From Escherichia coli (lineage in GTDB: Bacteria > Pseudomonadota > Gammaproteobacteria > Enterobacterales > Enterobacteriaceae), in assembly GCF_003018235.1 (NCBI RefSeq), contig NZ_CP027437.1: a DNA stretch of 64,000 nt; one strand, given 5' to 3'. Made by a program: the position numbers and the translations under genes. The stretch's first letter is position 1, and each line of letters opens with the position of its first letter. This document shows, piece after piece, positions 15,353 to 23,072 of this stretch. The notes beneath the pieces were generated by a model. The model was given only the letters and a program-made list of their open reading frames with translations. It was not told the DNA's origin and ran no database searches.

Positions 15353-17488
15353 TTGCTTAATCCGATCGTTCGTAAATTCCAGTACGGCCAACACACCGTG
15401 ACTCTGGAAACCGGCATGATGGCTCGTCAGGCTACTGCCGCTGTTATGGTTAGCATGGATGACACTGCGGTATTTGTTACCGTTGTTGGCCAGAAAAAAG
15501 CCAAACCAGGCCAGGACTTCTTCCCACTGACCGTTAACTATCAGGAGCGTACCTACGCTGCTGGTCGTATCCCGGGTAGCTTCTTCCGTCGTGAAGGCCG
15601 CCCAAGCGAAGGCGAAACCCTGATCGCGCGTCTGATTGACCGCCCGATTCGCCCGCTGTTCCCGGAAGGCTTCGTCAACGAAGTTCAGGTTATCGCCACC
15701 GTGGTTTCTGTTAACCCGCAGGTTAACCCGGATATCGTCGCGATGATTGGTGCTTCCGCAGCACTGTCTCTGTCTGGTATTCCGTTCAATGGTCCGATTG
15801 GTGCTGCCCGCGTAGGTTACATCAATGACCAGTACGTACTGAACCCGACTCAGGACGAACTGAAAGAGAGCAAACTGGATCTGGTTGTTGCCGGTACTGA
15901 AGCCGCTGTACTGATGGTTGAATCTGAAGCTGAACTGCTGAGCGAAGACCAGATGCTGGGCGCAGTAGTGTTCGGTCATGAACAACAGCAGGTTGTTATT
16001 CAGAACATCAATGAACTGGTGAAAGAAGCCGGTAAACCGCGTTGGGACTGGCAGCCGGAGCCGGTAAACGAAGCGCTGAACGCGCGCGTTGCTGCACTGG
16101 CTGAAGCTCGTCTGAGCGATGCTTACCGTATCACCGACAAACAAGAGCGTTATGCGCAGGTTGATGTCATCAAATCTGAAACCATCGCGACGCTGCTTGC
16201 TGAAGACGAAACCCTGGACGAAAACGAACTGGGTGAAATTCTGCACGCTATCGAGAAAAACGTTGTTCGTAGCCGCGTACTGGCAGGCGAACCGCGTATC
16301 GACGGTCGTGAAAAAGATATGATCCGTGGTCTGGATGTGCGTACTGGCGTGCTGCCGCGTACTCACGGTTCTGCGCTGTTCACCCGTGGTGAAACTCAGG
16401 CGCTGGTTACCGCAACGCTGGGTACTGCTCGTGACGCGCAGGTTCTTGATGAACTGATGGGCGAACGTACCGATACCTTCCTGTTCCACTACAACTTTCC
16501 TCCGTACTCCGTAGGCGAAACCGGCATGGTCGGTTCTCCGAAGCGTCGTGAAATTGGTCACGGTCGTCTGGCGAAGCGCGGCGTGCTGGCAGTCATGCCG
16601 GATATGGACAAATTCCCGTACACCGTACGTGTAGTGTCTGAAATCACCGAATCCAACGGTTCTTCTTCTATGGCTTCCGTGTGCGGCGCGTCTCTGGCGC
16701 TGATGGACGCAGGTGTGCCAATCAAAGCTGCCGTTGCGGGTATCGCAATGGGTCTGGTGAAAGAAGGCGACAACTACGTTGTACTGTCTGACATTTTGGG
16801 CGACGAAGATCACCTGGGCGATATGGACTTCAAAGTTGCAGGTTCCCGCGACGGTATCTCTGCACTGCAGATGGATATCAAAATTGAAGGTATCACCAAA
16901 GAGATCATGCAGGTTGCGCTGAATCAGGCTAAAGGTGCGCGTCTGCATATCCTGGGCGTAATGGAACAGGCGATCAACGCGCCGCGCGGCGATATCTCTG
17001 AGTTCGCTCCGCGTATCCATACCATCAAGATCAACCCGGACAAGATCAAAGACGTTATCGGTAAAGGCGGTTCTGTTATCCGTGCTCTGACCGAAGAAAC
17101 TGGCACCACCATCGAAATCGAAGATGACGGTACTGTGAAAATCGCAGCGACCGACGGCGAGAAAGCGAAACATGCTATTCGTCGTATCGAAGAGATCACT
17201 GCAGAAATCGAAGTGGGCCGCGTCTACAATGGTAAAGTGACCCGTATCGTTGACTTTGGCGCATTTGTTGCCATCGGCGGCGGTAAAGAAGGTCTGGTAC
17301 ACATCTCTCAGATCGCTGACAAACGCGTTGAGAAAGTGACCGATTACCTGCAGATGGGTCAGGAAGTACCGGTGAAAGTTCTGGAAGTTGATCGCCAGGG
17401 CCGTATCCGTCTGAGCATTAAAGAAGCGACTGAGCAGTCTCAACCTGCTGCAGCACCGGAAGCTCCGGCTGCTGAACAGGGCGAGTAA
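15353..17488 (+). CDS. pnp: Polynucleotide phosphorylase
   Basis: ORF 15266..17488; PNPase sequence begins [21 protein letters not shown] at the TTG at 15353 (E. coli pnp uses a UUG start); RNase PH, KH and S1 domains. Confidence 0.95.
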
Positions 17489-17499
17489 GGTTGCCATTT

Positions 17500-17526
17500 G
17501 CCCTCCGCTGCGGCGGGGGGCTTTTA
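17500..17526 (+). terminator. Hairpin after pnp
   Basis: GC-rich hairpin ccctccgctgcggcgggggg followed by ctttt. Confidence 0.5.
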
Positions 17527-17596
17527 ACCGGGCAGGACGCCTTGTTAGCAACCGGGAACAGGACGTTCATTCAACCGTGGTCTTCGGGAGTGGGAA

Positions 17597-18481
17597 ATGA
17601 AGCCTTTTTTGCGCTGGTGTTTCGTTGCGACAGCACTTACGCTTGCAGGATGCAGTAATACTTCCTGGCGTAAAAGTGAAGTCCTCGCGGTACCATTGCA
17701 ACCGACTTTACAGCAGGAAGTGATTCTGGCACGTATGGAACAAATCCTTGCCAGTCGGGCTTTAACCGATGACGAACGCGCACAGCTTTTATATGAGCGC
17801 GGAGTGTTGTATGATAGTCTCGGTCTGAGGGCATTAGCGCGTAACGATTTTTCGCAAGCGCTGGCAATCCGACCAGATATGCCTGAAGTATTCAATTACT
17901 TAGGCATATATTTAACGCAGGCAGGCAATTTTGATGCTGCCTATGAAGCGTTTGATTCTGTACTTGAGCTTGATCCAACTTACAACTACGCGCACTTGAA
18001 TCGCGGGATCGCATTATATTACGGCGGTCGTGACAAGTTAGCGCAAGATGATCTGCTGGCGTTTTATCAAGACGATCCCAATGATCCTTTCCGTAGTCTG
18101 TGGCTTTATCTCGCCGAGCAGAAGCTCGATGAGAAGCAGGCTAAAGAAGTGTTGAAACAGCACTTCGAAAAATCGGATAAGGAACAGTGGGGATGGAACA
18201 TTGTCGAGTTCTACCTGGGCAACATTAGCGAACAAACGTTAATGGAAAGGCTCAAGGCGGACGCAACGGATAACACCTCGCTCGCTGAGCATCTCAGTGA
18301 AACCAACTTCTATTTAGGTAAGTACTACCTAAGTCTGGGGGATTTGGACAGCGCCACGGCACTGTTCAAACTGGCGGTTGCCAACAACGTTCATAACTTT
18401 GTTGAGCACCGATACGCATTGTTGGAATTATCGCTCCTGGGCCAGGACCAAGATGACCTGGCAGAATCGGACCAGCAATAG
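17597..18481 (+). CDS. nlpI: Lipoprotein NlpI (TPR repeats)
   Basis: 294-aa ORF; lipobox LAGCS in the signal peptide; TPR-like repeats. Confidence 0.95.
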
Positions 18482-18660
18482 CTGACGTACACATCAGCCC
18501 GTAATCTTTTTTGATTGCCATCACCTTAACGGGTGAGGGCGTTGTTGTTCGTTAATACACCTACTTTGAGCCGGTTCACACTTTTCAATGAAAATTGCTG
18601 ATCAATTTCATGATGAGTTATGTAGACTGGCCGCCATTAATTTTGAGGCACACGTACTAC

Positions 18661-20550
18661 ATGGCTGAATTCGAAACCACTTTTGCAGATCTGGGCCTGA
18701 AGGCTCCTATCCTTGAAGCCCTTAACGATCTGGGTTACGAAAAACCATCTCCAATTCAGGCAGAGTGTATTCCACATCTGCTGAATGGCCGCGACGTCCT
18801 GGGTATGGCCCAGACGGGGAGCGGAAAAACTGCAGCATTCTCTTTACCTCTGCTGCAGAATCTTGATCCTGAGCTGAAAGCACCACAGATTCTGGTGTTG
18901 GCACCGACCCGCGAACTGGCGGTACAGGTTGCTGAGGCAATGACGGATTTCTCTAAACACATGCGCGGCGTAAACGTGGTTGCCCTGTACGGCGGCCAGC
19001 GTTATGACGTGCAATTACGCGCCCTGCGTCAGGGGCCGCAGATCGTTGTCGGTACTCCGGGCCGTCTGCTGGATCACCTGAAACGTGGCACTCTGGACCT
19101 TTCTAAACTGAGCGGTCTGGTTCTGGATGAAGCTGACGAAATGCTGCGCATGGGCTTCATCGAAGACGTTGAAACCATTATGGCGCAGATCCCGGAAGGT
19201 CATCAGACCGCTCTGTTCTCTGCAACCATGCCGGAAGCGATTCGTCGCATTACCCGCCGCTTTATGAAAGAGCCGCAGGAAGTGCGCATTCAGTCCAGCG
19301 TGACTACCCGTCCTGACATCAGCCAGAGCTACTGGACTGTCTGGGGTATGCGTAAAAACGAAGCACTGGTACGTTTCCTGGAAGCGGAAGATTTTGATGC
19401 GGCGATTATCTTCGTTCGTACCAAAAATGCGACTCTGGAAGTGGCTGAAGCTCTTGAGCGTAACGGCTACAACAGCGCCGCGCTAAACGGTGACATGAAC
19501 CAGGCGCTGCGTGAGCAGACACTGGAACGCCTGAAAGATGGTCGTCTGGACATCCTGATTGCGACCGACGTTGCGGCCCGTGGCCTGGACGTTGAGCGTA
19601 TCAGCTTGGTAGTTAACTACGATATCCCGATGGATTCTGAGTCTTACGTTCACCGTATCGGTCGTACTGGTCGTGCGGGCCGTGCTGGCCGTGCGCTGCT
19701 GTTCGTTGAGAACCGTGAGCGTCGTCTGCTGCGCAACATTGAACGCACCATGAAGCTGACCATTCCGGAAGTTGAACTGCCGAACGCAGAACTGCTGGGC
19801 AAACGTCGTCTGGAAAAATTCGCCGCTAAAGTACAGCAGCAGCTGGAAAGCAGCGATCTGGATCAATACCGTGCACTGCTGAGCAAAATTCAGCCGACTG
19901 CCGAAGGCGAAGAGCTGGATCTCGAAACTCTGGCCGCCGCACTGCTGAAAATGGCACAGGGTGAACGTACTCTGATTGTTCCGCCAGATGCGCCGATGCG
20001 TCCGAAACGTGAATTCCGTGACCGTGATGACCGTGGTCCGCGCGATCGTAACGACCGTGGCCCGCGTGGTGACCGTGAAGATCGTCCGCGTCGTGAACGT
20101 CGTGATGTTGGCGATATGCAGCTGTACCGCATTGAAGTGGGCCGCGATGATGGTGTTGAAGTTCGTCATATCGTTGGCGCGATTGCTAACGAAGGCGACA
20201 TCAGCAGCCGTTACATCGGTAACATCAAGCTGTTTGCTTCTCACTCCACCATCGAACTGCCGAAAGGTATGCCGGGTGAAGTACTGCAACACTTTACGCG
20301 CACTCGCATTCTCAACAAGCCGATGAACATGCAGTTACTGGGCGATGCACAGCCGCATACTGGCGGTGAGCGTCGTGGCGGTGGTCGTGGTTTCAGTGGC
20401 GAACGTCGTGAAGGCGGTCGTAACTTTAGCGGTGAACGCCGTGAAGGTGGTCGTGGTGATGGTCGTCGTTTTAGCGGCGAACGTCGTGAAGGCCGCGCAC
20501 CGCGTCGTGATGACTCTACCGGTCGTCGTCGTTTCGGTGGTGATGCGTAA
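18661..20550 (+). CDS. deaD: Cold-shock DEAD-box RNA helicase DeaD/CsdA
   Basis: ORF 18595..20550; [13 protein letters not shown] from the ATG at 18661; motifs [19 protein letters not shown]; repetitive arginine/glycine-rich C-terminal tail. Confidence 0.95.
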
Positions 20551-20593
20551 TCATCGCTAAACAGCGAACACAATCTGTAAAATAATATATACA

Positions 20594-20624
20594 GCCCCGA
20601 TTTTTACCATCGGGGCTTTTTTTC
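20594..20624 (+). terminator. Rho-independent terminator after deaD
   Basis: Hairpin cagccccgatttttaccatcggggct followed by ttttttt. Confidence 0.6.
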
Positions 20625-20631
20625 TGTCTTT

Positions 20632-20660
20632 TGTACTCGTGTACTGGTACAGTGCAATAC
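20632..20660. promoter_or_regulatory. Putative TrpR operator in the mtr promoter
   Basis: TGTACTCGTGTACTGGTACAGTGCA contains repeated GTACT half-sites resembling the trp operator consensus, about 50 bp upstream of mtr. Confidence 0.45.
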
Positions 20661-20703
20661 ATAACAACGCAGTCGCACTATTTTTCACTGGAGAGAAGCC
20701 CTC

Positions 20704-21948
20704 ATGGCAACACTAACCACCACCCAAACGTCACCGTCGCTGCTTGGCGGCGTGGTGATCATCGGCGGCACCATTATTGGCGCAGGGATGTTTTCTCTGC
20801 CTGTGGTCATGTCCGGGGCGTGGTTCTTCTGGTCAATGGCGGCGCTGATCTTTACCTGGTTCTGTATGCTGCATTCCGGCTTGATGATTCTGGAAGCTAA
20901 CCTGAATTATCGAATCGGTTCTAGCTTTGACACCATCACCAAAGACCTGCTCGGCAAAGGCTGGAACGTAGTCAACGGCATTTCCATTGCCTTTGTGCTC
21001 TATATCCTGACTTACGCCTATATTTCTGCCAGCGGTTCGATTCTGCATCACACCTTCGCGGAGATGTCGCTGAACGTCCCTGCACGGGGAGCGGGTTTTG
21101 GTTTTGCACTACTGGTGGCGTTTGTGGTGTGGTTGAGCACCAAAGCGGTCAGCCGGATGACAGCAATTGTGCTGGGGGCGAAAGTCATTACGTTTTTCCT
21201 CACCTTCGGTAGCCTGCTGGGACATGTGCAGCCTGCGACATTGTTCAACGTCGCCGAAAGCAATGCGTCTTATGCACCGTATCTGCTGATGACGCTGCCA
21301 TTCTGTCTGGCATCGTTTGGTTATCACGGTAACGTGCCGAGCCTGATGAAGTATTACGGCAAAGATCCGAAAACCATCGTGAAATGCCTGGTGTACGGTA
21401 CGCTGATGGCGCTGGCGCTGTATACCATCTGGTTGCTGGCGACGATGGGCAACATCCCTCGTCCGGAGTTTATCGGCATCGCCGAGAAGGGCGGTAATAT
21501 TGATGTGCTGGTACAGGCGTTAAGCGGCGTGCTGAACAGCCGTAGCCTGGATCTGCTGCTGGTCGTGTTCTCAAACTTTGCGGTAGCGAGTTCGTTCCTT
21601 GGCGTAACGCTGGGTTTGTTTGACTATCTGGCAGATCTGTTTGGTTTTGACGACTCTGCCCTGGGCCGCTTTAAAACGGCGTTGCTGACCTTTGCCCCGC
21701 CTGTTGTGGGTGGCCTGCTGTTTCCTAACGGATTCCTGTACGCCATTGGTTATGCTGGCTTAGCGGCTACCATCTGGGCGGCAATTGTTCCGGCGCTGTT
21801 GGCCCGCGCATCGCGTAAACGCTTTGGTAGCCCGAAATTCCGCGTCTGGGGCGGCAAGCCGATGATTGCGCTGATTCTGGTGTTTGGCGTTGGCAACGCA
21901 CTGGTGCATATTTTATCGAGCTTTAATTTGCTGCCGGTGTATCAGTAA
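20704..21948 (+). CDS. mtr: Tryptophan-specific permease
   Basis: 414-aa [36 protein letters not shown]; aromatic amino-acid permease family. Confidence 0.95.
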
Positions 21949-21984
21949 TCAGCGGTGCCTTATCCGACATTTCTGCTGCCTACA

Positions 21985-22020
21985 CAATGCCTGATGCGCT
22001 TTGCTTATCAGGCCTATATA
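21985..22020. repeat. REP element
   Basis: gcctgatgcgctttgcttatcaggcctat palindromic unit between mtr and yhbW. Confidence 0.5.
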
Positions 22021-22064
22021 GGACAGCGTTGCCAGCCCGATAAGGCTTCCCGCGTTAAGACACA

Positions 22065-23072
22065 CTATCCCAACAACTCTTCCTTCACATCCATCGCCAG
22101 CTCAAACGAATGCAGGCGCGCCTGGTGGTCGAAAATCTGCCCGTTAACCATAATCTCATCGGCGTCGGTTTCGCGCAGGATCGACTGCAAGCCGTGACGC
22201 ACTTTCGCTTTATCGCCCACCAGCGACATACTCAGCGCCTGCTGCACGCCATACTGCTCGGACGGTGACCAGAACTGATCCATATTTTGAATCGGCGGCG
22301 GTAGTTGCCCGGTTTCGCCACGGCGTAGTTTCACAAAGGCTTGCTGCATTGAGGTAAAGAGAAATTCAGCGTCGCGGTTGCTGTCGGCGGCGATAATATT
22401 GATGCACACCATCGCATACGGTTTTTCCAGCCGTGCCGACGGTTTGAAGTTGCTGCGATAAAGATGCAGCGCCTGGAACAACATATCCGGCGCGAAGTGT
22501 GAGGCAAACGCAAACGGCAGACCAAGCTGCGCCGCCAGTTGCGCGCTGTAAAGGCTGGAGCCTAACAACCACACGGGGATTTTCTCGCCATAGCCCGGTA
22601 CCGGGCGCACATGCGGATTGGGATCGCGGGCGTCAAACCAGTCCACCAGCTCCGCGACATCGCGGGGGAAATTATCAATATCGCCGCTCATATGACGACG
22701 TAGAGCCATCATGGTTCGCTGGTCACTACCCGGAGCACGGCCCAGCCCCAAATCGATTCGCCCCGGATAGAGCGTATTGAGCGTGCCGAACTGTTCGGCG
22801 ATCACCAACGGTGAGTGGTTTGGTAACATCACGCCGCCGGACCCCAGATGCAGCGTAGTGGTATTCGCCGCCAGATAGCCAATCAATACTGATGTTGCAG
22901 CACTGGCAATACCGGTCATATTGTGGTGTTCAGCCAGCCAGTAGCGATGATAGCCGCGCTTTTCAGCCAGACGGGCGAGGTCGAGAGAGTGGGAGAACGC
23001 TTCTCGCGCTGAAGAACCTTCGGGAATGGGGGCCAGATCGAGTAGCGAAAACGGAATGGTTTTATCAGTCAT
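22065..23072 (-). CDS. yhbW: Luciferase-like (LLM class) flavin-dependent monooxygenase
   Basis: 335-aa [29 protein letters not shown]; bacterial luciferase fold family. Confidence 0.9.

Follow-up and report, generated by a model that had tools for sequence, protein, structure and literature searches.

The DEAD-box helicases of Escherichia coli carry highly basic C-terminal extensions, which are presumed to provide secondary sites for RNA binding (PMC1616957). The ATP-independent annealing activity of CsdA is probably a property of its basic C-terminal domain, as it is for Mss116p and Ded1 (PMC3590231). More generally, non-specific RNA tethering, annealing and phase separation are attributed to the basic tails of DEAD-box proteins and the disordered regions of RhlE proteins (PMC3590231, PMC11260450), and the C-terminal disordered regions of RhlE helicases determine RNA binding, phase separation and the choice of partners (PMC11260450). 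For DeaD, PMC11850223, citing Xu et al. 2017, describes the RNA-binding domain as the main RNA anchor and reports that a construct lacking the tail keeps its ATPase and unwinding activities in vitro. DeaD foci form in E. coli, according to PMC7414142, which cites Hondele et al. 2019.

The tails of Mss116p, CYT-19, Ded1 and RhlE1/RhlE2 resemble that of DeaD, being disordered, Arg-rich segments that come after the helicase core, although disorder in DeaD is a prediction. The DeaD tail differs from them in two respects. It comes after two further domains, one for dimerisation and the other an RRM-like RNA-binding domain that already serves as the main RNA anchor (PMC11850223), and it is built from a mixed-charge ERREGGR repeat rather than from a purely basic tract. 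Eukaryotic RGG/RG boxes, such as those of FUS, nucleolin and DDX4, share with it an Arg/Gly-rich, repetitive and disordered character on an RNA-binding protein, whereas the repeated element of DeaD is GGR/ERREGGR with interspersed Glu. Methylation of RGG/RG-type motifs is not known from bacteria. With bacterial coding VNTRs the DeaD tract shares in-frame tandem units longer than 10 nt, length polymorphism between strains and a probably recurrent deletion between the most identical copies. In contrast to these, the DeaD units appear old and are diverged (72-89% identical), and polymorphism is rare (4.4%) and mostly smaller than a unit (+12, +15), with no unit gains seen among the complete E. 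coli genomes searched. The tail in the window, by which we mean the whole 64,000-nt stretch of E. coli DNA analysed here, is a direct member of the Pfam family PF12343 (DeaD_C) and differs in nothing of kind, only in a Ser at repeat unit U2 and one synonymous change.

Results

The repeat tract closes the deaD coding sequence

The gene carrying the repeats is, with near certainty, DeaD, the E. coli cold-shock RNA helicase. The NCBIfam equivalog NF008642 (PRK11634) matches with 1397.6 bits against a cut-off of 989 and covers residues 1-629. Five Pfam domains, all above their cut-offs, occur in the order DEAD (30-196), Helicase_C (232-340), DeaD_dimer (dimerisation, 374-443), DbpA (a DbpA-like RNA-binding domain, 489-558) and DeaD_C (the tail, 568-629). 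The entry in the list of open reading frames begins at an upstream in-frame TTG, and the annotated ATG gives MAEFETT.... The locus was matched in 5,425 of 5,426 complete E. coli genomes at 95-99% identity, where RefSeq annotates it as deaD. PDB entries 5gju, 5gi4 and 5b88, all named DeaD, gave essentially perfect matches, residue-by-residue identity having been seen for 5b88 only.

The window has reading frames at 17597-18481, 18661-20550 and 20704-21948, and mtr follows deaD in the RefSeq annotation. We take the upstream frame to be nlpI, giving the gene order nlpI-deaD-mtr. K-12 annotates a tiny gene, yrbN, which overlaps the start of deaD by 8 nt. The homologous position in the window is 18588-18668, for which the list of open reading frames holds only the in-frame upstream TTG extension of deaD. 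A strong terminator-like hairpin with the stem AGCCCCGAT...ATCGGGGCT begins 43 nt 3' of the deaD stop codon (Table 1); the stem was also called on the minus strand, which carries no T run. Upstream of mtr (start 20704), GTACTCGTGTACTGGTACAG lies at 20633-20652. This sequence is similar to the TrpR operator known from the mtr promoter and is a candidate for it.

Two further repetitive stretches were seen within deaD. A second charged low-complexity stretch at ~19960-20095 (DeaD aa ~434-478) links the dimerisation and RNA-binding domains, contains an internal RDRxDRGPR repeat (Tandem Repeats Finder, period 9, 19982-20005) and is rich in insertions and deletions across species in the alignment. 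A period-9 DNA repeat, CGTGCTGGC, with 3.6 copies at 19663-19694, is short and in frame and encodes 12 aa at helicase motif VI in the conserved core.

Table 1. The deaD gene, its repeat-built tail and the downstream hairpin, with positions in the window, and length alleles of the tail in complete E. coli genomes (allele names give the change in nt).
Feature	Position	Strand	Details
deaD (csdA) CDS	18661..20550	+	629 aa plus stop; ORF list, NCBIfam, Pfam, RefSeq annotation
Arg/Gly/Glu-rich C-terminal tail, predicted disordered	20359..20547	+	aa 567-629; Pfam PF12343 DeaD_C, composition, AlphaFold2
Repeat unit U1	20362..20394	+	33 nt, 11 aa; degenerate
Repeat unit U2	20395..20427	+	33 nt, 11 aa; one copy of the 18-nt exact repeat GGCGAACGTCGTGAAGGC
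Repeat unit U3	20428..20472	+	45 nt, 15 aa; includes a 12-nt insertion encoding GDGR
Repeat unit U4	20473..20505	+	33 nt, 11 aa; second copy of the 18-nt exact repeat GGCGAACGTCGTGAAGGC
Conserved tail end	20506..20547	+	14 aa; present in every E. coli length allele found
Intrinsic-terminator-like hairpin and T run	20593..20626	+	9-pair stem, 6 G-C pairs, then TTTTTTCTGT
Allele +12			REGG duplicated; 158 genomes, including strain 042
Allele +15			GGERR duplicated; ~50 genomes, many named "361" or "ST361"
Allele -78			U2 fused to U4; 21 genomes
Allele -132			whole array lost, ...GGERR joined to DDSTG...; 2 genomes, clinical isolates
Allele -66			two units lost; 2 genomes (O145:H28)
Allele -15			GGERR lost; 2 genomes
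Allele -33			one unit lost; 1 genome
Allele -21			EGRAPRR lost after U4; 1 genome

Four degenerate units in a predicted disordered tail

The repeat tract (20362-20505) lies in frame within the last 190 nt of deaD and consists of four degenerate tandem units of 33, 33, 45 and 33 nt. Tandem Repeats Finder reported a period of 33 with 2.9 copies at 20363-20457 (72% matches, score 106), and a repeat search found three 44-nt copies at 20372, 20405 and 20450, two of them 75% and 89% identical to the reference copy. A repeat-family search identified the C-terminal GRRRFGGDA (20525-20543) as a fifth, very degenerate copy. The sequence-only reading, which had recognized the gene as DeaD and placed tandem in-frame repeats at its C-terminus, is borne out on both points, the first by the PRK11634 equivalog and the five Pfam domains and the second by Tandem Repeats Finder, the repeat search and the reading frame. 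Its "three copies of about 33 bp" describe the ~33-nt tandem unit correctly, but there are four units, the spacing from start to start is 33 and then 45 nt, and the array runs to ~20505 rather than ending at 20495. The proposed repeated peptide, SGERREGGR, is exact only twice and is shortened to SGERREGR in the third copy. K-12 and most E. coli have GGERREGGR as the first of these units, and a substitution at 20395 accounts for the Ser in the window.

Codon shuffling of the 63-codon tail was used as a measure of chance repetition. In 5,000 shuffles the 10-aa exact repeat was reached twice and the 8-aa triple repeat once, while the 18-nt exact DNA repeat, the longest in the tail, was reached in 44. 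The lag-33 statistic over the whole tail was modest, being matched in 55 of the 5,000 shuffles, because the register changes at the 12-nt insertion in U3. The repeat exceeds the expectation from composition, and does so more strongly for the peptide than for the DNA. In the seven SGERREG codons, U2, U3 and U4 differ from one another by synonymous third-position changes alone (4, 1 and 3 in the pairwise comparisons, at four sites), a pattern consistent with an old duplication that selection on the peptide has maintained. The tail would have originated by in-frame tandem duplication of an 11-residue unit, which left four recognizable copies and the degenerate fifth.

The tail matches PF12343, a disordered-region family, with 45.7 bits against a cut-off of 23.3, residues 568-629 aligning to profile positions 1-62 of 62. 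Its composition is 30% Arg, 30% Gly and 11% Glu, with a net charge of +8. Solved DeaD structures span residues 6-210, 218-445 and ~481-564, so the tail is in none of them; 5b88 ends at Q564. When the RNA-binding domain and the tail were modelled together by AlphaFold2 from an alignment of 20 sequences, the tail (query residues 84-150) received a pLDDT of 42-49 without DSSP secondary structure, and the adjacent RNA-binding domain folded as beta-alpha-beta-beta-alpha-beta with a pLDDT of 64-77. The tail is accordingly best described as predicted to be intrinsically disordered. An RGG/RG box is reportedly defined by Thandapani et al. 2013 as RGG or RG repeats separated by 0-4 residues. The tail holds a single RGG (residue 572), failing the Tri-RGG and Di-RGG definitions, and one Di-RG (RGGGRG, residues 572-577), the weakest of the RG-motif definitions, failing Tri-RG. 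Because one RGG and one Di-RG are all that it contains, it has no canonical RGG box.

The allele carried by the window

The tail of the window equals that of K-12 apart from G579S. Within 20340-20520, the window and its nearest complete E. coli genome differ at 20395 (A, Ser for Gly) and 20427 (T, synonymous), both in U2. No complete E. coli genome matched this interval with fewer than two mismatches, and neither of the two bases is present in the nearest complete genomes. The two changes make the ends of U2 resemble U3, which could be due to intragenic conversion between repeats or just to divergence of the lineage. Ser at the start of U2 is also found in P0002, a Logan-derived protein cluster of 258 members.

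The natural length alleles found are in frame

Length variants of the tail were found in ~238 of 5,425 complete E. coli genomes (4.4%), the standard length being present in 95.6%, and they comprise eight alleles (Table 1). A 181-nt query (20340-20520) returned 162 records at 90-95% identity and 21 with less than 80% coverage, and individual matches exposed the +12, +15 and -132 alleles. The allele tally predicts 25 records below 80% coverage, against the 21 of that search, which also held 11 extra "places". A library of synthetic 100-nt junctions, separated by 40-nt random spacers and prepared on both K-12 and window backgrounds, was then searched with an E-value limit set to exclude normal alleles. 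It contained every in-frame deletion or duplication between microhomologies of ≥7 nt lying ≤170 nt apart; the +12 junction was covered by a separate search.

All eight alleles are multiples of 3 and keep the C-terminal 13 aa, as seen in translated representatives and from a library that is in frame only. Losses of whole units occur in just 26 genomes, where the -33, -66, -78 and -132 alleles remove 1, 2, 2 and ~4 units. The junction-library search found no duplication of a whole unit (33, 45, 66 or 78 nt) among the 5,425 genomes, and a separate search for the 156-nt deletion and duplication junctions (del156, dup156) was likewise negative. The expectation from the sequence alone that copy number could vary between strains is thus realized through in-frame alleles in ~4.4% of complete genomes; in this comparison of deaD alleles length does vary, but mostly by 12- and 15-nt internal duplications and with no whole-unit gain found. 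The tract is a weakly polymorphic coding minisatellite, and its in-frame length alleles are tolerated and segregating in natural E. coli.

The codon usage of the tail offers an explanation for the reading frame of these variants. Codon use is very uniform (CGT/GGT/GAA), and of the direct microhomologies of ≥6 nt in the K-12 tail, 47 are in frame and 1 is out of frame. Since near-uniform codon choice places nearly all microhomologies in frame, the events that they mediate are bound to be in frame, without any need to invoke selection. Slippage or microhomology-mediated recombination would generate such alleles while leaving the helicase and the conserved C-terminal end intact.

The -78 deletion has its ends exactly in the 18-nt exact repeats of U2 and U4, which it fuses. 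Four carriers were 17-116 substitutions apart over 3.1 kb, some of them nearer to full-length alleles than to each other, and carriers differ at 20301, 20322, 20499 and 20541, within ~100 nt of the junction, which defines at least three flanking haplotypes. The deletion is probably recurrent, because it lies between exact 18-nt copies and is found on at least three flanking haplotypes. This pattern suggests that the deletion arose independently two or three times at least, or that recombination tracts are very short, and makes the site a probable deletion hotspot.

Tails in related species keep composition rather than sequence

Tails were compared from Klebsiella, Enterobacter, Serratia, Pantoea, Mixta, Hafnia, Plesiomonas, Proteus, a Pasteurellaceae genus and metagenomic relatives. 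They were retrieved by a protein search with the C-terminal 150 aa and are mostly gene fragments, so that copy numbers were not counted systematically; they range from 52 to 91 aa, with 23-31% Arg and 0-4 GERR units. The Klebsiella tail has three exact 10-residue units and a duplicated APRRDD. A Plesiomonas sp. tail (P0071) carries an unrelated tandem, GDRPRGDRPPRRE, twice, and the repeat expansion of the tail is therefore independent in different lineages. The RNA-binding domain beside the tail is nearly invariant across species, and insertions and deletions are extremely frequent in the tail itself. All E. coli length alleles and most Enterobacterales tails retain the terminus RRRFG(G)DA (20527-20547), which may be a short linear motif. 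As judged from these alignments, composition is conserved while sequence and copy number turn over, a pattern typical of functional disordered regions.

Discussion

We consider it very likely that the tract is the 3' end of deaD, encoding a repeat-built, disordered and basic tail that has a role in tethering RNA and whose length alleles are tolerated. The mechanism itself, with the tail as a flexible, non-specific RNA tether, is held by analogy and seems reasonably probable; the functional evidence cited for it concerns the whole C-terminal extension or other helicases and not residues 567-629 alone. The tail follows the folded DbpA-like RNA-binding domain and would act as a positively charged tether without sequence specificity. 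By comparison with other basic helicase tails, it would raise local RNA affinity, supplementing the RNA-binding domain, and would promote strand annealing; it may also aid self-association into foci. Its composition and charge would outweigh its exact sequence or length. The repeats are dispensable for viability, because the -132 and -78 alleles exist in 2 and 21 genomes and a tail-less construct is active in vitro, and their contribution may be small or conditional.

Two other readings of the tail as a protein segment were weighed against the RNA tether. The repeats might be functionally neutral, low-complexity filler, a by-product of slippage that is tolerated beyond the last folded domain. 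Such filler would allow for the natural loss of two units in 21 genomes and of the whole array in 2, for the abundance of indels across species and for the ATPase and unwinding activities of the tail-less construct (PMC11850223). We nevertheless regard this as unlikely, because an Arg content of 23-31% over 52-91 aa is maintained across distant Enterobacterales and a Pasteurellaceae genus despite the turnover of sequence, the between-unit differences in SGERREG are all synonymous, the RRRFG(G)DA end motif is conserved and the length is standard in 95.6% of E. coli genomes. Conservation of the FSGERREG core and of the same terminus could also be read as a platform of short linear motifs on which a protein partner docks, be it RNase E, the degradosome, the ribosome or a protease, and the interaction of RhlE2 with RNase E does run via C-terminal disordered regions (PMC11260450). 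Yet a single species shows anything between 0 and 4 copies, the motif is degenerate beyond Enterobacteriaceae and the literature consulted maps no partner to the tail segment, which together make a docking platform decidedly improbable.

An element acting at the DNA or RNA level has next to no likelihood. The tandem direct repeat and the long other-frame reading frames at 20241-20573 (-) and 20345-20560 (+) might suggest one, whether a CRISPR-like array, a contingency tract, a structured RNA or an antisense gene, and each of these was rejected. The earlier judgement that the repeats are coding and not CRISPR stands, since the units abut without spacers, are 75-89% identical and keep the reading frame inside a conserved coding sequence. 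A phase-variable contingency tract is opposed by the imperfect 33-45-nt unit, the in-frame variants and the 47 in-frame microhomologies against 1; every natural length variant found is in frame, and therefore there is no on/off switching. A structured RNA was dismissed for want of inverted repeats and of an Rfam family, a search of 17000-23000 at the gathering threshold having returned none. An overlapping antisense gene was also discarded, as other-frame reading frames are an expected by-product of repeated CGT/GGT codons. These frames hold peptide repeats of their own (RRSPLK... and VVKAVV...). Alternative-frame segments of this kind also occur in the database proteins P0001, P0044 and P0080, a sign that some public assemblies of the tract contain frameshift errors.

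Tail length could in principle be a tunable, recurrently mutated "rheostat" of DeaD activity, set by gain and loss of ERREGGR units. We hold this to be quite doubtful. If true, altered RNA tethering or condensates would lead to altered cold growth, ribosome assembly or stress tolerance, and the -78, +15 (in ST361-labelled strains) and +12 (in the 042 lineage) alleles would be favoured in particular clinical lineages.

The tract as such is ordinary and already catalogued as Pfam DeaD_C. It has little impact on annotation and does not merit a flag as either repeat array or mobile element. What is new here is descriptive, namely the spectrum and frequency of natural in-frame deaD length alleles and the probable deletion hotspot, and the tail provides a clean example of uniform codon usage confining the products of slippage to in-frame alleles. 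The natural allelic series of 0, 2, 3, 4 and 4+ units on an intact DeaD is usable to test the role of the tail, and could address its contribution to RNA annealing, focus formation and cold adaptation.
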